DNA of 64,000 nt from an uncultured Candidatus Binatia bacterium (GCA_965242525.1 OZ251459.1:2016001-2080000), one strand, 5' to 3'. Counted from the first letter of the stretch, positions 3,194 through 15,332 are shown. Numbers and translations are program-made. The notes: generated from the sequence alone by a model not told the origin.

Positions 3194-3239
3194 TTGACCG
3201 GACTTGGACCGGCCTGCCGTCGTCCACGCGGGGACCGCA

Positions 3240-4544
3240 ATGAAAACGTCGCAAAACATGGCTTCCGGGCTGATCGTGACCCGGGTCGAAGCCCTCGGCT
3301 TCCGCTCCCTGCGCTACGTCTCGCAGCGACTCGGCCCCTTCCACGTCCTGGTCGGACCCAACGCCAGCGGGAAATCGGCGTTTCTCGACGTGCTGGCCTT
3401 CCTGGGCGACCTGCAACGGGTGGACCTCAAGCACGCGATCATGGGCCACCAGCCGCTCGCGGTACCGGTCCGCGCCACCGATCCGCAGCACATCACCTGG
3501 ATGCGGCGCGGCGCGCCCTTCGAACTGGCCTTGGAGGCAGCCGTTCCCGACGCGCTTCACGGGCACCTGAAGAACGGATCCGCCCGTGTATGCAGGTACG
3601 AGGTCACGGTGGACGTGTCGGAACCCTGCCGCATCGTCCGGGAGAACCTCTGGCTGAAGCCGGACAAGGGCTTCGGAGCCGAACGCATGCGGTCGGAGTT
3701 CCCGGACCCGCCCGAGCCGCCTGGGGAGGTCGTCGTCGATCCAGGGAAGCGGCCCCCCAGGAATTGGAGAAAGGTAGTCTTTCGGGAAAGCGATCCCGAA
3801 CGGGCAACCTTCCATCCCGAAACTTCCGGACGGTCGTTCCAGTTCCGTGTTCCAACCGGCCAATCCGCACTGAACAGCCTGCCTCCGGACGAGGAGCTTT
3901 TTCCGGTCGCCGCTCGATTCAAGCAGATGCTGGCGGCAGGCGTTCAGCGTATCGCCCTGTCGAGCGAGGCCCTTCGCCGGCCCAGTCCACCCGGCCAGTC
4001 CGACACCTATCTCCCCGACGGTTCGAACCTTCCCTACCTCGTGAACAAAGTGGCGAAACACCGCGACCTGTATGGGGACTGGACCATGCACGTCCGCGAG
4101 GCGCTGCCCGACGTGGTTCGGATCGTGCCCCGCATACGATCAGACGACGGACATCGTTACCTGATGGTTCACTACCGCAATGGATTGGAAGCGCCATCCT
4201 GGCTGGTGTCGGACGGCACGCTGCGGTTCCTCGCGTTGACGCTGCTCGCGTACCTCCCCGAACCCACCGGCCCTTACCTGATCGAGGAGCCGGAGAACGG
4301 CGTCCACCCTCTCAACGTGGAAACGGTCCTTCAGTCACTTTCATCGGTCTATGACGCCCAAGTCCTGTTGGCGACCCATTCGCCCGCCATCGTTCGCCTC
4401 GCCAGCCTCGACCAAATGCTCTGCTTCGCTCGTGACGAAGACCGCGGCGCAGACGTCGTCGCCGGCCGCGCACACCCCCTCTTGCGAGATTGGCAAGGAG
4501 TCACCGATCTGGGCGCCCTGCTCGCGAGCGGAGCCCTCGAGTGA
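3240..4544 (+). CDS. AAA_21/ABC-type ATPase, MADS MAD3-like
   Basis: Walker A GPNASGKS, signature VSDGTLRFLAL, Walker B LIEEPENGVHP, switch ATHSP. N-terminus IVTRVEALGFRSLRYVSQRLGPFHVLVG resembles MAD3 homologues. Start uncertain (3240 or 3258). Confidence 0.75.
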   Translation: MKTSQNMASGLIVTRVEALGFRSLRYVSQRLGPFHVLVGPNASGKSAFLDVLAFLGDLQRVDLKHAIMGHQPLAVPVRATDPQHITWMRRGAPFELALEAAVPDALHGHLKNGSARVCRYEVTVDVSEPCRIVRENLWLKPDKGFGAERMRSEFPDPPEPPGEVVVDPGKRPPRNWRKVVFRESDPERATFHPETSGRSFQFRVPTGQSALNSLPPDEELFPVAARFKQMLAAGVQRIALSSEALRRPSPPGQSDTYLPDGSNLPYLVNKVAKHRDLYGDWTMHVREALPDVVRIVPRIRSDDGHRYLMVHYRNGLEAPSWLVSDGTLRFLALTLLAYLPEPTGPYLIEEPENGVHPLNVETVLQSLSSVYDAQVLLATHSPAIVRLASLDQMLCFARDEDRGADVVAGRAHPLLRDWQGVTDLGALLASGALE

Positions 4545-5410: not shown

Positions 5411-6433
5411 ATGAAAGCAACTCGCTCGTTCCTGGCCCGGGGCCTCGGCGCCCTCCTGGCCCTGTCGTTTCCGCTGGCCTCCGCGGGAGGCGCCGCGGAC
5501 GGGGTGACGGTCGCCTACTTCCTGGAATGGCCCACGCCGAACATCGCGGCGAAGATCGAGAAGACCTATGACAAGGTCATGGGGGTGGACCTCGCCTGGA
5601 AGTCCTTCGGCACCGGCAACGACATGTCCGCGGCCATGGCTTCGGGGGACGTGCAGATCGCCTACTCCCAGGGGCTGATCCCGTTCATGGTCGCGGTCAG
5701 CCGAGGGTTGCCGCTGGAGGCGGTGGGAGTCGCCGTGGCCTATTCCGACGCCGACAACTGCGTGGCGCACGAAAAGGCCGGCATCGACCGCTCCACCGCC
5801 ATGAACTTCGCCAAGTCCCTCAAGGGCCGGAGGGTCGCCTCGCCCATCGGCAACATCACCCATTACAAACTGCTGAAGACCCTGGCCTACTACGGGCTGT
5901 CGGAGAAGGACGTCTCCATCGTCCCGGTCACCGGGGGCAACGACGCGGCCGCGGCGTTCCTGAGCGAGAGGGTGGATATCGGCTGCGCCTTCGGCGGTCC
6001 GCTGGAACGGATGACCGCCAAGGGCAAGGTGTTGATGACCGGCGCCGAGCAGGAGAACATCGGCATACTCACCTTCGACGTGATCTCCGTGACCCGGGAG
6101 TTCGCCCGGGAGCACCCCGACCGGGTGGTGCAGTTCCTGCAGGTCACCGAGGACGCCAACCGCGCCTTTGCCGCCAACCCCAACGCCCAACTGGCCACCA
6201 TCGCCAAGGCATGGGGGATGAGCCTGGAACAGGTGAAGGGTTATCTCGGCGGCGCCGGCAGCTTCTCGTTCCCGACCCGGGACCAGCAGTTGTCGCCGGC
6301 CTGGATGGGCGGCACGGTGCAGGCCGCGACCAAGGGCGCCGCGGACTTCTTCGTGGAGCAGAAGCAGATGTCCCGGGCCCTGGACGACTACAGCGGCGCC
6401 GTCAACACCCGCTACCTGCAACGGGTGAAGTAG
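5411..6433 (+). CDS. tauA: Taurine-type ABC transporter substrate-binding protein
   Basis: Signal peptide, VAYFLEWPTPN, FGTGNDMSAAMASGDVQIAYSQG; RBS GGAGG upstream. Confidence 0.8.
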   Translation: MKATRSFLARGLGALLALSFPLASAGGAADGVTVAYFLEWPTPNIAAKIEKTYDKVMGVDLAWKSFGTGNDMSAAMASGDVQIAYSQGLIPFMVAVSRGLPLEAVGVAVAYSDADNCVAHEKAGIDRSTAMNFAKSLKGRRVASPIGNITHYKLLKTLAYYGLSEKDVSIVPVTGGNDAAAAFLSERVDIGCAFGGPLERMTAKGKVLMTGAEQENIGILTFDVISVTREFAREHPDRVVQFLQVTEDANRAFAANPNAQLATIAKAWGMSLEQVKGYLGGAGSFSFPTRDQQLSPAWMGGTVQAATKGAADFFVEQKQMSRALDDYSGAVNTRYLQRVK

Positions 6434-6470
6434 CGTCCGTCGAGGCGCCGGGAACCCCGGGAGGGCATCC

Positions 6471-7318
<848 letters not shown>

Positions 7319-7322
<4 letters not shown>

Positions 7323-8191
7323 GCCGGGGGACGCCGACGCTCCTGCGCCGGACGCTGGTGCGGCTGGGGCTGCGCAAGGCCGGGGAGGAAGCGCGGAAGA
7401 CCGTGACCTTCGGCGACCCTGCGGCCGCCCGGGGCGGGGTCTTCTGGAGCATCGTCTCCGTGGCCGGGGTGGTGGCGCTGTGGTTCATCGCCACCGAGAA
7501 CCGGTGGACCACGCCCATCTTCCTGCCCCCGCCCGCGGACGTGTGGCGGCAGTTCACACTCACCCTGTTCGACGGGTTCCGCGGCTACAACCTGCTGCAG
7601 CACGTGGGGGTCAGCGTCTATCGCCTGCTGGCGGGTTTCGCCCTCGGCTGCCTGGTGGGCATCCCCATCGGCTTCGCCATGGGGCTGTCGCGCACCATGC
7701 GCGGCCTGTTCGACCCTATCGTGGAGTTCATGCGGCCGATACCGCCCCTCGCCCTGATCCCGCTGATGATCATCTGGGCCGGCATCGACGACAAGCCCAA
7801 GATCATCCTGCTGTTCCTGGCCGCGCTGTGGATCATGGTGCTCGCGGCGCGCGCGGGCGTGCAGAGCATCCGCCTGTCCAAGATCCACGCGGCCTACACC
7901 CTTGGGGCCTCCCGGTCCCAGGTGCTGGTCCGCGTCATCCTGCCCAACTCGCTGCCGGAGATCTTCACCGGCATGCGCGTGGCCATGGGGGTGTGCTGGG
8001 GCACCCTCGTGGCCGCGGAACTGGTGGCCGCGGACGTGGGCATCGGCTTCATGATCGTGGTGGGGGGGAAGTTCCTCGAGACCGGGCTGGTGCTGGTGGG
8101 CGTCATCATCATCGGCGTCATCGGCGCCGCCATCGACGTAGGCATGCGAAAGCTGGAAGCCCGGATGATCCCCTGGAAGGGCAGAGGTTGA
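7319..8191 (+). CDS. tauC: Taurine/sulfonate ABC transporter permease
   Basis: ATGA overlap with tauB; hydrophobic helices, RPIPPLALIPL, EAA-like loop (HAAYTLGAS). Confidence 0.85.
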
Positions 8192-8218
8192 GGCGCCCCG
8201 GCCTCCGGGGCTTTCCAT

Positions 8219-8300
8219 GGGAAAGCGCGTCCTTCGACTTCGCTTCGCTACGCTCAGGACGAACGGGGACCTCCACTTGCTACGCTCGGAACGAACGGGA
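8219..8300 (+). repeat. MITE-A core palindrome (no TIRs) plus partial tandem copy
   Basis: GGGAAAGCGCGTCCTTCGACTTCGCTTCGCTACGCTCAGGACGAACGGGG followed by TACGCTCGGAACGAACGGGA. Confidence 0.8.
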
Positions 8301-8503
8301 GTCTCCACTACGCGATCCGATTCCCTCCCTCCTTGAGGGGGAGGGACAGGGAGGGGGGCCGCCCACACCAGCAGACCCATAACGAACGGGGACCGCTGTC
8401 CAGCCTTTCCTTGACACGCCATCGGCAACGGCCTAGGATTCGCAGGACGCACGCATCGACCGCCGACGTTCCATCCACCGCGGACTTTCACGGAGGAAGA
8501 AAA

Positions 8504-9628
8504 ATGGCCAAACAAGGCTTCAAGGCAATGGATTCGGACATGCACGTCTTCGAGCCCGCGGACCTGTGGGAGCGCTACATGGACCCGGAGTTCCGGGACC
8601 GGGCCCCCAAGGGGCTGCAACGGGACTTCCGGGACCTGGGCGTGGAGGTGGAGGGGAAGATCCTCCCCGTTCCCCGGCGGCCCGAGAACCCGGCGCTCCG
8701 GGACTACCGCCTGACCACCCTCAAGGAGAAGTACGGCGACGTGGCCGAGCGCGGTTTCGACGGCGTGAGCCAAGTCATGGCCATGGACAAGGAGGGGCTC
8801 GACCTGGCCTTCCTCTTCCCCACCCGCGGGTTGTTCGTCCTGGGCATCGACGGCCTCGACCCCGAGCTCGCCGCGGCCATATCCCGGGCCTACAACGACT
8901 GGCTCCACGACTTCGCGCAAGCCGCGCCGGACCGGATGCTCTGCGTCGCCATGGTGCCGCCCCAGAACGTGGAAGCAGCGGTGGCGGAGACCCGGCGCAC
9001 CGTAGGCGAGATGGGTTTCCGGGGCATATTCATGAGGCCCAACCAGACCAACGGGCGCTGCTGGAGCGACCCCTACTACGATCCGCTATGGGACGTGTGC
9101 CAGAGCCTCGACGTGCCGGTGGGCTTCCACGAAGCCGGGCGGGTCTATCAGCCGCAACCCGCCATCTCCCAGTTCATCCCCACGTTCTCCATGTTCAACA
9201 CCCTGAGCTTTCCGCTGGCCAACATGTTCGCCTGCTCGGACATGATCTACGGCGGCGTGATGGAACGCTTCCCCAGGCTGCGCGTCGCGTTCCTGGAAGG
9301 GAACTGCTCGTGGCTCCCCTGGCTCCTGTGGCGCATGGGCGACTACATGGAGTCGGTGGGGAAGGCGGAGTACCCGGACTTGACGCTCGAACCCCTGGAG
9401 TACTTCCAGCGCCAGTGTTTCGGCGCGGTCGAATGCGACGAGGTCACCGCAAAGCACATGCCCGAGTACGGCCTGGAGGACAACCTGGTGTTCTCCACCG
9501 ACTACCCGCACCTGGACGTCAAGTACCCCCACTCGCTGGACGCTTTCCTGGAGATGCCGTTCTCCAACGAGTCCAAGCGCAAGTACCTCTGGGACAACTG
9601 TGCGAGGCTGTACAACCTGGGGCAGTGA
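8504..9628 (+). CDS. Amidohydrolase_2 family metal-dependent hydrolase/decarboxylase
   Basis: MDSDMHVFEP, RAYNDWL, FSTDYPH; RBS GGAGGA. Confidence 0.85.
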   Translation: MAKQGFKAMDSDMHVFEPADLWERYMDPEFRDRAPKGLQRDFRDLGVEVEGKILPVPRRPENPALRDYRLTTLKEKYGDVAERGFDGVSQVMAMDKEGLDLAFLFPTRGLFVLGIDGLDPELAAAISRAYNDWLHDFAQAAPDRMLCVAMVPPQNVEAAVAETRRTVGEMGFRGIFMRPNQTNGRCWSDPYYDPLWDVCQSLDVPVGFHEAGRVYQPQPAISQFIPTFSMFNTLSFPLANMFACSDMIYGGVMERFPRLRVAFLEGNCSWLPWLLWRMGDYMESVGKAEYPDLTLEPLEYFQRQCFGAVECDEVTAKHMPEYGLEDNLVFSTDYPHLDVKYPHSLDAFLEMPFSNESKRKYLWDNCARLYNLGQ

Positions 9629-9641
9629 CGCCGGGGTTTCC

Positions 9642-10766
9642 GTGCGGACATTCGAGCGACGGGGGATCGTCGAAGGGTTCTTCGGTCCCCCGTGGACCAC
9701 CGCCCACCGCGCCGCCATGTTCGCCTTCGGCGCGGCCCGGGGCATGAACACCTACCTCTACGCCCCCAAGGACGACCCGTACCACCGGGAGCTCTGGCGA
9801 CTGCCCTACCCGGAACCGGAGTGGCGCGAGCTCTGCCGCCTCATCGAGGCGGCCCAGGGTCAAGGCATCGACTTCGTCTATGGCTTCCACCCCGGCAAGG
9901 ACCTCCGCTTCACCGCCCCGGAACCCGTACAGGTCCTGCTCGACAAGGCCGCGAGGCTGTACGACCGGGGCGTGCGGACCTTTGCCGTGCTGTTCGACGA
10001 CATCCCGTCGCACCTCACCCACGCCGAGGACGTGCGCAAGTTCGACCGCAGCCTGGCCAGAGCTGAATCCCTCTGGCTCGAAACCGTGATGGAGCGGCAA
10101 CCCGCCCACTGGCGCGTAGAGTGGTGGTTCTGTCCCTCGTACTACACGGACGACCCGTTGCTGGCCCGGACCTTCGGCGCCTTCGAGTCCGGGTTCCTGG
10201 AGACCGTGGGACGGTGCCTGCCCGCTTCCGTGAGCTGCTTCTGGACCGGGCCGAAGGTGGTGCCCGGGAGCATCGACTTGGCCCACATGGAGGCGGTGGG
10301 CGAACGGGTCGGACACCGGCTGCTGCTCTGGGACAACTATCCGGTCAACGACCTCACCATGAGCGACGAGCTGCACATCGGACCGCTCACCGGCCGGGAC
10401 CCGCGGCTCCCGGAGCGGGTCCACGCGCACTTGGCCAACCCGCTGCTGCAGGAAGAACTCAGCTTCGTTCCCCTGGCCACGTGCTTCGACTATGCCCGGG
10501 ACCCGTCCGCATACGCGCCGGAGGCGAGCTGGGAGGCGGTCGTGGCCGAGCGCTTCGGCCCCGCCAACCTGGACCACTGGCGCGCCCTCAGACGGTTCTG
10601 CGAGAAGGACGCGGGCGCCGCGGCGACGACGGCGCTTTCGGAACCGGAGCGCGCCGCGCTCGAAGCGGCCCACGCCTACCTGCTGGCGCACAGGGACGAA
10701 CGGTGGGGCCGGGAGTTCGCCCCGTGGCAAACCCGGCTGGAGCTCCTGCTCCGGGGAGACCGGTGA
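9642..10766 (+). CDS. GH84 beta-N-acetylglucosaminidase (O-GlcNAcase-like), catalytic domain only, no signal peptide
   Basis: RGIVEGFFGPPW, YLYAPKDDPYHR, catalytic LFDDIP, FWTGPKVV, LLWDNYPVND. Confidence 0.88.
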   Translation: MRTFERRGIVEGFFGPPWTTAHRAAMFAFGAARGMNTYLYAPKDDPYHRELWRLPYPEPEWRELCRLIEAAQGQGIDFVYGFHPGKDLRFTAPEPVQVLLDKAARLYDRGVRTFAVLFDDIPSHLTHAEDVRKFDRSLARAESLWLETVMERQPAHWRVEWWFCPSYYTDDPLLARTFGAFESGFLETVGRCLPASVSCFWTGPKVVPGSIDLAHMEAVGERVGHRLLLWDNYPVNDLTMSDELHIGPLTGRDPRLPERVHAHLANPLLQEELSFVPLATCFDYARDPSAYAPEASWEAVVAERFGPANLDHWRALRRFCEKDAGAAATTALSEPERAALEAAHAYLLAHRDERWGREFAPWQTRLELLLRGDR

Positions 10767-10918
10767 CGGGCCGCCGCGGCGCCGCGGGAGGGGCCGCCGG
10801 CGGACACCGGGCGGCCGCCGGGCAGGGATCCCCGCACCCCCTGCGAAGCGCCCCGGAAGACGCCTCGGCCGGGCGGACGGCCGCCGGGGGCCGGTCCCTG
10901 CGCCCCGCGGAGGAAGGA

Positions 10919-12211
10919 ATGCCGTCGGCCGACAACCTGCTGGACACCCTGCACGAAGTGCGGTCCCGAACCCTCGCCCTGGTGGAGGACCTCACGGACG
11001 AACAACTGATCGGCCCCAACCTCCCCATCGTCAACCCTCCGCTCTGGGAGATCGGCCACGTGGCCTGGTTCCACGAACGCTGGGCGCTCCGGCGCCTGCG
11101 CGGCCGCGACGCCATCCTCCCGCAAGGCGACGCCCTCTACAATTCTGCAACCGTCCCCCACGATTCCCGCTGGGACCTGGCGCTGCCGTCGCGGGAAGCG
11201 ACCCTCGACTACATGGCGCGCGTTCTCGATCGCATCTCGGAAGCACTGCCCGGCCGCGCGCCCGGACCGGAGGAAACCTACTTCCACCGACTGGGCGTCC
11301 TGCACGAAGACATGCACGCGGAGGCGCTGACCTACACGCGCCAGACCCTGGCCTACCCCGGGCCCTCGTTCCTCCCCCGCGGGCCGGCCTCGGCCGGCGG
11401 CCCCCACCCGGGCGACGCGGAGGTCCCCGGCGGCGAGTTCCTGCTCGGGGCAAGCCCGGACTCCCCCTTCGTCTTCGACAACGAGAAGTGGGGGCACCCG
11501 ATGACCGTGGCGCCCTACTGCATGGCCAAGGCGCCGGTGACCAACGCCGAGTTCGCCGCGTTCGTGGACGACCGGGGCTACGAGGATCCGCGCTGGTGGA
11601 GCGCCGCGGGCTGGGAGTGGCGCCGGACCGGAGGCGGACCCCATCCCGTGTACTGGCGTCGGGAGTCCCCCGGACGCTGGCTGGAGCGGACCTTCGACCG
11701 ATGGCTGCCGCTTGAGGGCCACCTCCCGGTGATCCACGTCAACTGGTACGAGGCCGAGGCATACTGCAACTGGGCCGGACGCCGGTTGCCCACCGAGGCC
11801 GAGTGGGAGATGGCCGCGGCGGTGGACCCCGCGGACCGAGCGGACCCGGAAGCGGCCAAGCGCCGTTTCCCGTGGGGCGGCGCGCCCCCCGACCCGGACC
11901 GCGGCAACCTCGACTGGGCCGGGGGCGGCCGGACGCCGGTGGACGCGCTTCCGGCCGGCGACAGCCCGGTGGGCTGCCGGCAGATGATCGGCAACGTGTG
12001 GGAGTGGACGGCCGACGTCTTCCACCCCTACCCCGGTTTCGTCCGGGACCCCTACGAGGAGTACTCCGAGCCCTGGTTCGGAGACCACCGGGTGCTGCGC
12101 GGCGGCTGCTGGACCACCCGCTCGCACCTCATCCGCAACACGTGGCGCAACTTCTACAAACCGGACCGCCGGGACGTCCTCGCCGGCTTCCGCACCTGCG
12201 CACGGCGATGA
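10919..12211 (+). CDS. senA: Selenoneine synthase SenA (EgtB-like DinB + FGE-sulfatase non-heme iron enzyme)
   Basis: NPPLWEIGHVAWF, iron motif HEDMHAE, RLPTEAEWE, GNVWEW, RNFY; adjacent to senB. An alternative in-frame GTG at 10763 overlaps the GH84 stop. Confidence 0.75.
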   Translation: MPSADNLLDTLHEVRSRTLALVEDLTDEQLIGPNLPIVNPPLWEIGHVAWFHERWALRRLRGRDAILPQGDALYNSATVPHDSRWDLALPSREATLDYMARVLDRISEALPGRAPGPEETYFHRLGVLHEDMHAEALTYTRQTLAYPGPSFLPRGPASAGGPHPGDAEVPGGEFLLGASPDSPFVFDNEKWGHPMTVAPYCMAKAPVTNAEFAAFVDDRGYEDPRWWSAAGWEWRRTGGGPHPVYWRRESPGRWLERTFDRWLPLEGHLPVIHVNWYEAEAYCNWAGRRLPTEAEWEMAAAVDPADRADPEAAKRRFPWGGAPPDPDRGNLDWAGGGRTPVDALPAGDSPVGCRQMIGNVWEWTADVFHPYPGFVRDPYEEYSEPWFGDHRVLRGGCWTTRSHLIRNTWRNFYKPDRRDVLAGFRTCARR

Positions 12212-12216
12212 CCGGA

Positions 12217-12445
12217 GGAACCCCTGAACAATCGAGGCATGGAAAGCGCGTCCTTCGACTTCGCTTCGCTACGCTCAGGACGAACGGGGGTAATCGTTCA
12301 GGGTTTCATGAAGGGAGAGTCTGGACAATTGGGCAGAGGGCATGAGTGCGCCCTTCGACTCCGCTTCGCTACGCTCAGGGCGAACGGGGGTGGAGGGTCA
12401 GGGCAAGGGAATCCACTCTCCATGTCTCGATTGTCCAGCGGTTCC
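12217..12445 (+). mobile_element. Two tandem MITE-A copies (12217-12308, ~12314-12445)
   Basis: Each has the core and degenerate GGAACC(C/T)CTGAACAAT / ATTGT(C/T)CAG(A/C)GGTTCC ends. TGAA lies at 12309-12312 and again after 12445. Confidence 0.8.
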
Positions 12446-12875
12446 TGAAGGTCTTGGAGTAGGCGCCATTCGACAAGATGGAAACCAAGACGAAGCGACT
12501 GTAAACAAGGAGGCTCTTCCGGCTTTCGTGTGGGTAAGGCAGGAAGGAAAGGGAAGCGACATCACCGCGGAGGCTCACCCCGTCATTCCCGCGAAAGCAT
12601 GTCCTCGCGGAAGCGGGGGCGGGAATCCATCCGCTTTCCTCGCTCTCGTTGTACAAACCTCTCATACAGGGCGCCATGGGGTTTGCTCGCAAGGTCTGGA
12701 TTCCCGCTTTCGCGGGAATGACAAGACGGGGCTTTCGCGGGTATGACGGGATGAAGCTTTCGCGGGTATGACGGGATGGGGAGTGTCGCAATCCACACGA
12801 ATTCCTGAAGCGCCAACAAGGATGGCTCCCGCGCTATCATACGTCCTTATGGTGGCAGCCACTCCAAGATCTTCA
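12446..12875. mobile_element. Putative third small element (TG...CA ends) interrupted by MITE-B
   Basis: Inverted repeats TGAAGGTCTTGGAGT / ACTCCAAGATCTTCA (14/15); 119 bp once MITE-B and one target copy are removed. Confidence 0.5.
12512..12814. mobile_element. MITE family B (ISL3-type ends, palindrome pair, GIY-YIG remnant)
   Basis: Imperfect 24-bp TIRs GGCTCTTCCGGCTTTCGTGTGGGT / ATCCACACGAATTCCTGAAGCGCC; perfect 8-bp target duplication AACAAGGA. Confidence 0.9.
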
Positions 12876-12879
12876 ATTT

Positions 12880-12957
12880 CCCCGTTCATCCTGAGCGTAA
12901 CGTAGCGAAATCCTCCGTTCGTCCTGAGCGTAGCGAAGCGAAGTCGAAGGACGCGCT
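12880..12957 (-). repeat. MITE-A core (reverse) with partial tandem copy
   Basis: CCGTTCGTCCTGAGCGTAGCGAAGCGAAGTCGAAGGACGCGC preceded by CCCGTTCATCCTGAGCGTAA. Confidence 0.8.
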
Positions 12958-13093
12958 CATGCTCCCTCGATCGTCCAGGGGTTCCCGGGATGCCGCGAGG
13001 GAAACGACAGGGTCACAAATGAAGGAACCGAGGGCCGTCGCCGGCCCTCGCAAGGAAAGGACCGCGGAATTGGCAAACGACTCGCTCGAACGC

Positions 13094-14053
13094 ATGGCCG
13101 CCATCGCCCTGGTGACCCCCGCGGGACCCACCCGGCGCACGGGCAACCGCATCTCGGGGGGCCGGTGGGGGCGGATCCTCAGGGCATCGGGCCATCGGGT
13201 CCGGACCCTGGACCGCTACGACAGTGAACACTGCGACCTGCTCATCGCGCTGCACGCCCGCCGCAGCCACGAGTCCGTCCTGCGGTTCCGCCAACTCCAC
13301 CCCCACAGGCCCGTCATCGTGGTGCTGACCGGGACGGACCTGTACCACGACATCCGCGTCAACGAGGACGCCCAGGAGTCCCTCCGGCTGGCGAGCCGCC
13401 TGGTGGTGCTGCAGCAACAGGGGCTCCGGGAACTCTCCCCTGCACTCCAGCGGAAGACCCGGGTCATCTACCAGTCGGCGTCGCCCTGCACCCCTCGCCC
13501 CGGAGACCGGCGCAGGGCCTTCACCGTATCGGTGGCGGGCCACATGCGGACCGAGAAGGACCCGTTCCGCACGGCCATGGCGGTGCGCGGGTTGCCGTCC
13601 TCGTCCCGGATCCGAGTGCTGCACATGGGCGCCGCCCTGAGCGAGGACATGGAGCGGCGCGCCCGGCGGGAGGAAGAGCGGAACCCGCGGTACCGCTGGC
13701 TGGGGGAATTGGCGCACTGGCAGGCGCGGCAGATGCTCGCCAAGGGCCACCTCCTGTCCATTACCTCGCGCATGGAGGGCAGCTCCAACGTCCTGTGCGA
13801 GGCCCTGGCCTCCGGGGTTCCGGTGGCTGCCTCGAAGATCCCGGGACTGGTGGGGACCCTGGGCGAAGACTACCCGGGGTACTTCGAACTCGGTGACACC
13901 GGAGGGCTGCGGCGGCTGTTGCTCAGGGCCGAAGGCGACCCGGAGTTCTACCGGAGCCTGACGCGGCATTGCGCCAAGGCCGCGCCGCTGGTGCTCCCCG
14001 AGCGCGAAGTCCAAGCCTGGCGGCGCCTGGTGGACGAGGTCGCCGCCGGCTGA
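13094..14053 (+). CDS. senB: Selenosugar synthase SenB (GT-B glycosyltransferase)
   Basis: IALVTPA...GNRISGGRW, LIALHARRS, VVLTGTDLYHD, GHMRTEKDP, SRMEGSSNVLCEA, LGEDYPGYF are characteristic of the SenB family. Confidence 0.85.
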   Translation: MAAIALVTPAGPTRRTGNRISGGRWGRILRASGHRVRTLDRYDSEHCDLLIALHARRSHESVLRFRQLHPHRPVIVVLTGTDLYHDIRVNEDAQESLRLASRLVVLQQQGLRELSPALQRKTRVIYQSASPCTPRPGDRRRAFTVSVAGHMRTEKDPFRTAMAVRGLPSSSRIRVLHMGAALSEDMERRARREEERNPRYRWLGELAHWQARQMLAKGHLLSITSRMEGSSNVLCEALASGVPVAASKIPGLVGTLGEDYPGYFELGDTGGLRRLLLRAEGDPEFYRSLTRHCAKAAPLVLPEREVQAWRRLVDEVAAG

Positions 14054-14102
14054 CTCCACGAGGGGCCGCGCCTGCATGGCGCCGGTGCCGTCGTTCCCGA
14101 GA

Positions 14103-14131
14103 TGGATTCCCGCTTTCGCGGGAATGACGGG
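14103..14131. repeat. Isolated REP/dRS3-like palindrome between convergent genes (possible terminator role)
   Basis: TGGATTCCCGCTTTCGCGGGAATGACGGG, same motif as inside MITE-B. Confidence 0.75.
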
Positions 14132-14168
14132 GAGTCGGCGTCCGGTTGCCGGCTTGCTGCTTTCCGGC

Positions 14169-15332
14169 TCACTCCGCGCCGGAGAGGACCTCCGTCAGCG
14201 CCTCGGCTACGGTGTCCAGCTCGGCGTGGGTGATGGTGAGGGGGGGCAGCAGCCGCACCACGGTGGCGCCCGCGGGCAAGGCGAGCACGCCTCGCTCCAT
14301 GAGCCGGACCAGGTACGGCTGGGACTTCTCCTTGAGCTCGATGCCGATCATCAGGCCCAGTTGCCGCAGTTCCCTGACCTTGGGCAAATCCCTCGCCTCC
14401 AGGCGCTCCCGCAGGTAGGCGCCCTTTTCCGCGGCTGCCTGGTCGAGCCGTTCCTCGACCATGGCGTCGATGGCCGCAAGGGACGCGGCGCAGGCCAGGG
14501 GGTTGCCGCCGAAGGTGCTGCCGTGCCTGCCCACCGGGGGCGTCACCTTGTCGGAACAGAGCACCGCGCCCATGGGGATGCCCCCGGCCATGGCCTTGGC
14601 CAGGCACAGGATGTCGGGCTCCAGGCCGAAGTGCTCGCAGGCGAACATCTTTCCGGTGCGGCAGAAACCGGTCTGGACCTCGTCGATGACCAGCAGGACG
14701 CCCCGGTCCCGGCACAGCTCGCCCACTTGTGAGAAGAACTCCGCCTTGCCGAGGTTCACCCCCCCTTCCCCCTGGACCACCTCCAGCAGCACGGCCGCGG
14801 TGTCGTCGCCCACCTGCGCTTCCAGCTTGGCGAAGTTGTTGAAGGGCGCGAACCGGAAACCTTCCACCACCGGCACGAAGGGCTCCCGGTACTCGCGCGT
14901 GAAGGTGGCGCTCAGGGCGCCCATGGTGCGGCCGTGGAACCCGCGCATGGCGCACACGAGCTCGTGCTTGCCGGTGGTGAAGCGGGCGAACTTGATGGCC
15001 GCTTCGATGGTCTCGGCGCCCGAGTTGCACAGGTAGGCGCGGGTGAGGCCGCCCGGGGCGATGCCCACCAGCCGCTCCAGCAGCCGCGCCTTGACGTCGT
15101 TGTAGAAGATCCCCGGGCAGGTCAGCAGCCGCCGGGCCTGCTCGGCCACCGCCTCCGCCACCTTCGGGTGGCAGTGGCCCAAGCTGGCCACGCCGTGGCC
15201 GGCCGCGCAGTCGATGTACTCCCGGCCGGCGTCGTCCCACACCCGGGCGCCCTGGCCGCGCACCAGCACCACGTCGCGCTTGGGATAGACGTCGAACTCG
15301 TACCGCCGCTGCAACTCCATCCAGTCGCTCAC
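14169..15332 (-). CDS. lysJ: [LysW]-aminoadipate/glutamate semialdehyde aminotransferase (LysJ/ArgD)
   Basis: Class III PLP motifs NSGAE, FHGRT, DEVQTG, LAKAMAGG, HGSTFGGNP; located in the lysW operon. Confidence 0.85.
   Translation of the reverse strand: MSDWMELQRRYEFDVYPKRDVVLVRGQGARVWDDAGREYIDCAAGHGVASLGHCHPKVAEAVAEQARRLLTCPGIFYNDVKARLLERLVGIAPGGLTRAYLCNSGAETIEAAIKFARFTTGKHELVCAMRGFHGRTMGALSATFTREYREPFVPVVEGFRFAPFNNFAKLEAQVGDDTAAVLLEVVQGEGGVNLGKAEFFSQVGELCRDRGVLLVIDEVQTGFCRTGKMFACEHFGLEPDILCLAKAMAGGIPMGAVLCSDKVTPPVGRHGSTFGGNPLACAASLAAIDAMVEERLDQAAAEKGAYLRERLEARDLPKVRELRQLGLMIGIELKEKSQPYLVRLMERGVLALPAGATVVRLLPPLTITHAELDTVAEALTEVLSGAE

Follow-up and report, generated by a model that had tools for sequence, protein, structure and literature searches.

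A small GH84 glycoside hydrolase linked to the selenoneine genes senA and senB in Candidatus Binatia suggests a missing step in selenoneine metabolism

We analyzed a 64,000-nucleotide (nt) stretch of DNA from an uncultured Candidatus Binatia bacterium (hereafter the window, G000:C1:2016001-2080000), in which a gene for a family 84 glycoside hydrolase (GH84) lies just upstream of senA and senB, the genes for the selenoneine synthase and the selenosugar synthase. The window's genome, G000, measures 4.23 Mb, is 98.96% complete and has ~68% GC; its closest public relatives carry the label Candidatus Binatia. The GH84 belongs to a lineage that is confined to genomes encoding SenA and SenB, usually within one apparent operon with the two, suggesting that selenoneine metabolism includes an enzymatic step missing from the described pathway. 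The original prediction for this DNA listed an amidohydrolase gene, a 13-bp gap, the GH84 gene, senA, inserted repeats and senB, all on one strand, and every one of these elements is present, as follows.

8504-9628, plus strand: Amidohydro_2 protein (ACMSD/LigW-type metal hydrolase or decarboxylase family), 374 amino acids (aa); PF04909, E 1.2e-33
9642-10766, plus strand: GH84 beta-N-acetylglucosaminidase (predicted), 374 aa; PF07555, E 2.9e-82
10767-10918, plus strand: GC-rich sequence separating GH84 from SenA; a GTG at 10763 would put it in the SenA reading frame, but it is probably non-coding
10919-12211, plus strand: SenA, selenoneine synthase, 430 aa from ATG 10919; NF041186, with the Pfam domains DinB_2 and FGE-sulfatase
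12212-12990, no strand assigned: dispersed repeats (REP/MITE-like) between senA and senB, recognized as short genome-wide high-scoring segment pairs
13094-14053, plus strand: SenB, selenosugar synthase (GT-B glycosyltransferase), 319 aa from ATG 13094; TIGR04348

SenA scored 516.4 bits against NF041186, the SenA equivalog model of NCBIfam (cut-off 420), compared to 342.7 bits against the EgtB model TIGR03440, which is under that model's cut-off of 360. SenB scored 390.5 bits against TIGR04348, the NCBIfam equivalog for SenB (cut-off 300), and contains the Pfam domains Glyco_trans_1_4 and Glycos_transf_1. The amidohydrolase gene ends with a TGA at 9626-9628, and the GH84 starts with a GTG at 9642, 13 bp downstream, and stops at 10764-10766. 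A GTG in frame with senA had been noted to overlap this stop; it is real, at 10763, though the ATG at 10919 is the better SenA start. The alignment to the SenA family begins at the residue encoded at ~10925, a GGAGGA box precedes the ATG, and the length of the spacer varies (152 nt in G000, ~26-163 nt among relatives), and we therefore read the sequence between the two genes as probably intergenic and non-coding. SenB has alternative starts at 13019 and 12959, and the TIGR04348 alignment opens at residue 49 of the open reading frame that begins at 12959. Because the repeats run across this ATG, covering 12959-12990, a start at 13094 (or 13019) is more likely.

The inserted sequence separating senA from senB consists, as described, of dispersed repeats (~0.8 kb). 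The senA-senB spacer is 882 nt in G000 compared to only ~16-384 nt in relatives, so we regard the repeats as an insertion. They gave 2733 short high-scoring segment pairs against G000, with one core (12261-12290) present in 712 copies in the genome and 20 in the window, and a second (12701-12722) in 236 and 8 copies, respectively. These two short families fill intergenic spaces genome-wide, in the window also at 8240, 14107 and 17951, and they give rise to spurious long open reading frames and to misleading ATG starts, of which 12959 is one.

The GH84 matches PF07555 with 276.7 bits (cut-off 25) over 291 of the 295 model positions. It falls short of the full-length NCBIfam equivalog NF041654 (732 positions; 202.8 versus 1000 bits), a model that includes extra domains that the 374-aa protein lacks. 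An AlphaFold2 model of the protein (predicted local distance difference test score 93.6, predicted template modeling score 0.92) displays eight strand-helix units, the (beta/alpha)8 arrangement, and a helical bundle at residues 275-371. The top 50 Foldseek matches are all GH84 structures, the best being the Thermobaculum terrenum O-GlcNAcase (OGA; PDB 5DIY, query-normalized TM-score (TMq) 0.89; GlcNAc, N-acetylglucosamine), which is also the closest solved relative (E 4.9e-66, 319 residues aligned); Clostridium perfringens NagJ (CpNagJ) and Bacteroides thetaiotaomicron BtGH84 align as well. Residues K43, Y168, W230, N232, D237 and N266, which we take to form the -1 GlcNAc subsite, are conserved in the clade to which the window's GH84 belongs (described below) and in at least 85% of other GH84s. 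D119-D120 aligns with the pair of adjacent aspartates (DD) of CpNagJ and with D119/N120 of the D120N mutant crystallized as 5DIY; the role of the DD motif in GH84 enzymes is described in PMC4263850. Since only six residues precede the first barrel strand, no signal peptide is possible, and the earlier description of a cytoplasmic GH84 with an intact DD motif holds. We predict from these features a working cytoplasmic beta-N-acetylglucosaminidase, which, by analogy with characterized family members, very probably uses a substrate-assisted retaining mechanism on beta-GlcNAc.

We considered the possibility that the enzyme is a protein O-GlcNAcase and rejected it, as no GT41 O-GlcNAc transferase (OGT; PF13844) was found in the 98.96% complete G000; the same search was positive in 2 of 14 control genomes. 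A protein O-GlcNAc cycle is thus unlikely in this organism. We also looked for fusions of the GH84: in the size range 656-2000 aa, the highest identity is 40%, and FGE-sulfatase and glycosyltransferase domains are absent from all 120 listed proteins, a negative result that is weak evidence.

The original prediction named linkage between GH84 and senA in related genomes as decisive. We fetched 80 GH84 loci. Identity to the window's GH84 is 54% or more in 17 of them and 42% or less in the other 63. In 12 of the 17 close loci, GH84, SenA and SenB lie on one strand. Three more are cut by contig ends (L011 within SenA; L014 and L019 in GH84), sen genes are absent within 10 kb of GH84 in L012, and L015 has only a neighboring gene for a stand-alone FGE-domain protein. 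At the 63 distant loci, neither SenA nor SenB is found close by. In a reciprocal sample of 43 SenB loci, two of which come from close Binatia relatives, these two are the only ones with a GH84 in the examined flanks.

In a class-wide sample of 151 genomes (orthologue threshold, at least 58% identity), the GH84 orthologue is present in 19 genomes, namely G000 and all 18 of the other sampled genomes of its order, covering three families (f1, 7/7; f86, 9/9; f87, 2/2). SenB lies within 5 kb and on the same strand as GH84 in 17 of the 19 carriers; the contig of one exception (G288) stops 94 nt after SenA, and the other (G219) has only a GH84 fragment, located at the edge of a contig. The gene order is GH84-SenA-SenB, GH84-VOC-alpha/beta hydrolase-SenA-SenB (L010, L146 and L147) or GH84-SenB. 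The last order was seen in the two f87 genomes (G246 and G304), in which SenB follows GH84 directly and SenA is 1.4 Mb away or on another contig. The linkage holds across three families of one order and survives rearrangement. Clade GH84s were also found away from sen genes in four genomes (including G003), each of which encodes a SenA and a SenB that exceed their cut-offs. The four include a Burkholderiales metagenome-assembled genome (MAG), whose GH84 is on a 512-kb contig and has a host-like, very high GC content at third codon positions of 0.93; that the contig shares this value speaks against mis-binning.

To place these enzymes within the family, we built a tree of 87 GH84 catalytic regions (IQ-TREE quick, LG+G4), omitting L025 and L138 as too short and dropping five duplicate loci. 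A single clade, with a Shimodaira-Hasegawa approximate likelihood ratio test value of 100 and a stem of 0.63, unites the 24 GH84s of sen genomes. Twenty of them adjoin senA and/or senB, and the genomes of the other four have both genes elsewhere. The three sister rows (39-41% identity) likewise trace to genomes that have SenA, in one case split in two, and a SenB above cut-off. Among 35 genomes with other GH84s, none has SenB above cut-off; in one of these (G369), SenB is divided between two contig ends and a SenA is present. The association between this GH84 and the sen genes is not due to chance. Its strength derives from linkage through three gene orders, from co-occurrence without linkage in at least one distant lineage, and from a clade boundary that coincides with the presence of sen genes.

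An ordinary GlcNAc-salvage enzyme or protein O-GlcNAc hydrolase might still come to lie beside senA and senB by inherited synteny within a single order. Such a neutral neighbor would fit the origin of most linked loci in one order, the identity of the closest solved relative as the T. terrenum O-GlcNAc hydrolase (5DIY), and the fact that most sen clusters work without a GH84. We nevertheless consider this explanation very improbable, given that the linkage is kept down to 54-60% protein identity and through different gene orders, that genomes with a clade member have senA and senB even where the genes are not linked, as in the Burkholderiales genome, that the sister lineages too come from sen genomes, that 0 of the 35 control genomes have SenB above cut-off, and that G000 has no OGT. 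It is likely, in our assessment, that the GH84 has a functional connection with the sen pathway.

The rest of this pathway was located by local tblastn across the whole of G000, which returned one copy each of GH84, SenA, SenB, EgtD and SelD. The statement that selD/senC and egtD are absent from the window was confirmed, and both selD and egtD are single-copy elsewhere in G000. The egtD gene is at C1:1994071-1995093, ~30 kb upstream of the locus, and selD is at G000:C1:3604732-3605769 on the minus strand (locus L001), ~1.6 Mb from the locus, where C1:3604834-3605757 is the only SelD match above cut-off in the genome. SelD has one in-frame TGA near its N-terminus, in the Gly-rich motif and at the position expected for selenocysteine, and probably contains this residue. 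There is no senC in the cluster, and no SelD match occurs in the flanks of any GH84-linked sen locus; because senC is missing, the single SelD must also serve the sen pathway in G000. The genome thus encodes a complete selenoneine route (egtD, selD, senB and senA), from which production of selenoneine is predicted. No EgtB was found in G000 by tblastn, and hercynine has no other obvious consumer there. The suggestion that the GH84 might also act on ergothioneine is unsupported, as EgtB is absent from the genome.

We compared this arrangement with the canonical senA-senB-senC cluster of Variovorax paradoxus and others, as presented in the available text of Kayrouz et al. (bioRxiv 10.1101/2022.04.13.486033). 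The same SenA and SenB orthologues are present above equivalog cut-offs, and the supply of hercynine (EgtD) and selenophosphate (SelD) is likewise encoded. G000 differs in having no senC in the cluster, with a lone selenocysteine-type SelD 1.6 Mb off and egtD 30 kb off, and in having a GH84 before senA and ~0.8 kb of repeats between senA and senB. In the canonical pathway as described there, the sugar is lost by spontaneous selenoxide elimination and no hydrolase takes part.

When comparing the clade with other GH84s, we scored a position as clade-specific if its residue occurs in at least 95% of clade members and in at most 10% of other GH84s. There are 31 such positions, including seven gained Trp and three Tyr-to-Phe changes, and several of them (F14, F82/H83, W161/W162/S166, C199 and L227) are at strand ends beside catalytic residues. 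F14 is found in 24 of 24 clade members, compared to Tyr in 59 of 60 other GH84s, and corresponds to Tyr69 of human OGA (hOGA) and Tyr189 of C. perfringens OGA (CpOGA). In hOGA, Tyr69 is reported to stack on the glycopeptide backbone and may hydrogen-bond the acid/base Asp, and the Y69F mutant stays active (PMC3476531). If the enzyme acts on hercynyl-SeGlcNAc, its aglycone site would have been rebuilt for a trimethyl-betaine selone, with seven Trp and Glu gained and the hydroxyl of the peptide-stacking Tyr lost.

Bacterial GH84 homologues of O-GlcNAcase (T. terrenum OGA 5DIY, C. perfringens NagJ/CpOGA, B. thetaiotaomicron BtGH84 and O. granulosus OgOGA) share with the window's enzyme the fold, the DD pair and the Lys/Tyr/Trp/Asn/Asp/Asn set. 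The window's GH84 differs from them in belonging to a separate clade and in its minimal length of 374 aa, without a carbohydrate-binding module, signal peptide or long stalk. It also has Phe in place of Tyr69 (hOGA)/Tyr189 (CpOGA), together with 30 further clade-specific positions, and the genomic partners of its clade are selenium-metabolite genes, not glycan-utilization or O-GlcNAc-cycling genes.

The published chemistry of the pathway offers a place for such an enzyme. SenB is reported to make a 1-seleno-beta-sugar from a UDP-alpha-sugar (PMC10891094; UDP, uridine diphosphate). In the account available from the 2022 preprint, the hercynyl-SeGlcNAc selenoxide made by SenA was not directly observed, a reduced selenoether was detected as a shunt product, and a spontaneous Cope elimination was proposed for the selenoxide (bioRxiv 10.1101/2022.04.13.486033). 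We propose the following sequence of events. SelD, encoded elsewhere in the genome, would supply selenophosphate, with which SenB would convert UDP-GlcNAc to 1-seleno-beta-GlcNAc (SeGlcNAc), and SenA would couple SeGlcNAc oxidatively to EgtD-derived hercynine, giving the hercynyl-SeGlcNAc selenoxide. Part of the selenoxide would eliminate spontaneously to selenoneine, and part would be reduced by cellular thiols to the stable hercynyl-SeGlcNAc selenoether. The GH84 would then cleave the beta Se-C1 bond of the selenoether, and perhaps of the selenoxide too, to yield selenoneine and GlcNAc. In this step, D119 would polarize the acetamido group, an oxazoline intermediate would form, and the selone/selenolate would be a good enough leaving group that no acid catalysis is needed. 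The result would be to keep scarce selenium out of a dead end. O-GlcNAcase is said to cleave thioglycosides without general acid catalysis, a finding attributed to Macauley et al. in 2005.

The GH84 chemistry fits three substrates: the hercynyl-SeGlcNAc selenoether or selenoxide, free SeGlcNAc, and 2-acetamidoglucal. We tentatively favor the first, hydrolysis of hercynyl-SeGlcNAc with release of selenoneine, as a possibility somewhat short of an even chance. It would be productive and not futile, it would rescue scarce selenium, and a rebuilt aglycone region rich in Trp and Glu, residues common in betaine-binding sites, would make sense only with an aglycone.

The GH84 could instead turn over the selenosugar itself, hydrolyzing free 1-seleno-beta-GlcNAc or its diselenide to GlcNAc and selenide, which would recover selenium and sugar or limit the reactive selenol when hercynine or SenA is limiting. 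SeGlcNAc is beta-configured, HSe- is a good leaving group, and the GH84 is directly beside SenB in the two genomes in which SenA is distant. This turnover would, on the other hand, be a futile cycle undoing the work of SenB, yet the GH84 usually opens the same apparent operon, with only a few tens of nt before senA. SenA is present in all clade genomes examined (24 of 24 rows, plus the three sisters), and a GH84 is found at 0 of 18 SenB loci that have no SenA in the examined flanks. We thus regard selenosugar turnover as unlikely. No clade GH84 was found in a genome with SenB and without SenA; as every clade genome has SenA, this result has no discriminating power.

The 18 SenB loci without SenA in the examined flanks belong to a set of 41 from outside Binatia. 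Among the 18 are Planctomycetota, Kuenenia-labelled, Solibacteraceae and Verrucomicrobia-type MAGs, in part represented by short contigs. They suggest split pathways or producers of the selenosugar only. The loci are as follows.

SenB loci without SenA: L088, L096, L100, L102, L104, L106-L109, L111, L112, L114, L115, L117, L120, L122, L124, L127

The third substrate, 2-acetamidoglucal, would be a by-product of selenoxide elimination, which the GH84 would hydrate to GlcNAc, salvaging the sugar and removing a potent inhibitor of the cell's hexosaminidases. The glycal was observed as the released sugar in the OvsA reaction, which is called analogous to that of SenA (bioRxiv 10.1101/2024.04.10.588772, in the text available), and N-acetyl glycals are reported to be tight-binding hexosaminidase inhibitors (PMC6017319, citing Santana et al. 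2016). Both observations favor such a clean-up role, and the formation of one glycal per selenoneine would account for the link to SenA and SenB. Beta-hexosaminidases were reportedly shown by Lai and Withers in 1994 to hydrate 2-acetamidoglucal, but this activity belongs to GH20 enzymes, not to GH84. Selenoneine is, moreover, a trace metabolite, making sugar salvage negligible, and a substrate with no aglycone leaves the 31 clade-specific substitutions unexplained, including the seven gained Trp and the Tyr-to-Phe change by the acid/base Asp. Glycal hydration would also need proton delivery, which the Tyr-to-Phe change would not favor. Taken together, these points make by-product clean-up a rather unlikely role.

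Several observations weigh against hercynyl-SeGlcNAc hydrolysis as the function of the GH84, or against its generality. None of the 41 other SenB loci carries a GH84 within the examined flanks, and 37 of these 41 genomes from outside the group have no GH84 at E <= 1e-20 when searched whole. Six SenB-positive genomes of the same class, from other families, have no clade GH84. Most of the linked cases are kin within one order and are not independent. Where SenA has moved away (G246 and G304), the GH84 stays by SenB, which a substrate made by SenB fits at least equally well. The published in vitro reconstitution of the sen pathway, in the form reported in the available text (bioRxiv 10.1101/2022.04.13.486033), worked without a glycosidase. 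The clade-specific residues are placed relative to strands only, and the gene data do not tell the selenoether from SeGlcNAc or 2-acetamidoglucal as substrate.

The GH84 is thus an accessory of the sen pathway and not a core step, because 37 of 41 SenB genomes of other groups have none, and it is dispensable, because the reconstitution needed no glycosidase. For the original prediction that the GH84 adds a step to selenosugar and selenoneine metabolism, the conserved linkage and the fitting chemistry speak in favor; necessity of the step is not supported, with most sen genomes having no GH84. We propose that the GH84 is a dedicated sen accessory enzyme in one Binatia order and a few other lineages.

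In ergothioneine biosynthesis, EgtE and EgtC follow the same logic, in which a carrier moiety is stripped from the chalcogen after coupling by an NHISS enzyme (EgtB). They are unrelated to GH84, being a pyridoxal phosphate-dependent C-S lyase and an amidohydrolase as opposed to a glycoside hydrolase, and they act on another type of bond. A step like that of EgtE/EgtC was reported to be unnecessary for the sen pathway (bioRxiv 10.1101/2022.04.13.486033, in the text available). A precedent for a 2-chalcogeno-imidazole betaine on an anomeric carbon being displaced as a leaving group is the ergothioneine S-glycoside of lincomycin biosynthesis (LmbT/LmbV), as presented in PMC13674229. That case differs in that mycothiol carries out the displacement, the enzyme family is another, the chalcogen is sulfur and not selenium, and no hydrolysis takes place.

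Additional genes accompany the clade GH84 in some genomes. A stand-alone FGE-sulfatase protein of ~270 aa, without the DinB iron domain, is encoded divergently from the GH84 in five loci. Its best NCBIfam matches are to the C-terminal halves of SenA and EgtB (106 and 101 bits), and it has no orthologue in G000. This protein may be a second sen-associated accessory. One genome, G004, has two clade GH84 copies: one beside SenA-SenB (L138:1-408; truncated at the start of the contig, with 56% identity to the window's GH84) and one beside the FGE-only gene (L019/L141; 67% identity). A two-domain VOC/glyoxalase-fold protein and an HsaD/BphD-like alpha/beta hydrolase are encoded between GH84 and SenA in L010, L146 and L147, the latter two from f86. 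The alpha/beta hydrolase occurs alone in this position in L017:11353-12222 and just 5′ of GH84 in L020:8946-9815 and L011:8931-9800. G000 has only distant homologues of these proteins (36-38%), elsewhere in the genome. The positions of the two sets of genes are as follows.

Stand-alone FGE genes: L015:9076-9897 (minus strand), L019:1569-2378 (minus strand), L144:10350-11057, L145:6800-7508, L146:11856-12629
VOC plus alpha/beta hydrolase insertions: L010:11118-12831, L146:8597-10575, L147:6100-8712

In the window itself, a pathway role for the amidohydrolase upstream of the GH84 is unsupported. It adjoins GH84 only in six loci of the same genus (L005, L006, L007, L085, L086 and L148), and its family, Amidohydro_2 (PF04909), is much expanded in G000, with ~68 tblastn matches to the window copy at E <= 1e-5. 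The protein has no NCBIfam match. We rejected it as a pathway member; as a neighbor it is probably incidental or genus-specific. We likewise rejected the TauABC-like transporter further upstream as part of the unit, since its scores stay under the equivalog cut-offs and relatives have no conserved orthologue of it. 5′ of the transporter genes, at 3204-4544 on the plus strand, is an open reading frame for an AAA_21/AbiEii-like ATPase (PF13304, E 7e-29), which may be a defence-type or orphan ATPase. 3′ of SenB are convergent arginine/lysine-type biosynthesis genes on the minus strand. Further features of the region are listed below.

5411-8191, plus strand: TauABC-like ABC transporter, scores under equivalog cut-offs
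8411-8439, plus strand: sigma-70-like promoter match upstream of the amidohydrolase gene, TTGACA-17-TAGGAT, 10/12 matches

The promoter match was the single site found between 8100 and 14300, where 0.2 were expected, and is a consensus match only, with no evidence of function. No terminator-like site was found on the plus strand in the same scan of the locus, which is too weak as evidence on the operon. An Rfam scan of 8000-14500 gave no match at E <= 0.1. In sponge-metagenome runs from 2-3 studies, 38-47% of the sampled 31-mers of 9000-14100 are present, a hint that close relatives of G000 live in sponges. None of the 22 runs listed for this stretch is an RNA data set.

In the literature searched, we found no paper joining selenoneine with GH84 or a glucosaminidase; supplementary neighborhood tables might list GH84 at low frequency. 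In the 2022 description of selenoneine biosynthesis, three enzymes make up the pathway and its final step is non-enzymatic (bioRxiv 10.1101/2022.04.13.486033), and the main text of that preprint makes no mention of a glycosidase, hydrolase or glucosaminidase. Table 1 of a 2026 survey, which gives families co-encoded with NHISS genes, contains no glycoside hydrolase (PMC13674229). The physiological roles of bacterial GH84s have been called doubtful and unstudied (PMC4263850, in the text available).

Candidates for the missing step are deglycosylation of the selenoether or selenoxide, selenosugar turnover and clean-up of the glycal by-product. The idea is directly testable, as all substrates are already made in published SenA/SenB assays. 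It is conceivable, if less than an even bet, that the sen-clade GH84 is a dedicated selenoglycosidase, the first of its kind, which catalyzes the last step of selenoneine formation as a functional counterpart of EgtE. If this reading is true, the "spontaneous" last step would be insufficient in thiol-rich cells. More broadly, a confirmed role in the sen pathway would make the enzyme the first glycoside hydrolase known to act physiologically on a Se-glycoside or a glycal, could raise the yields of engineered selenoneine production, and would assign a function to a family of small GH84s of the bacterial cytoplasm.

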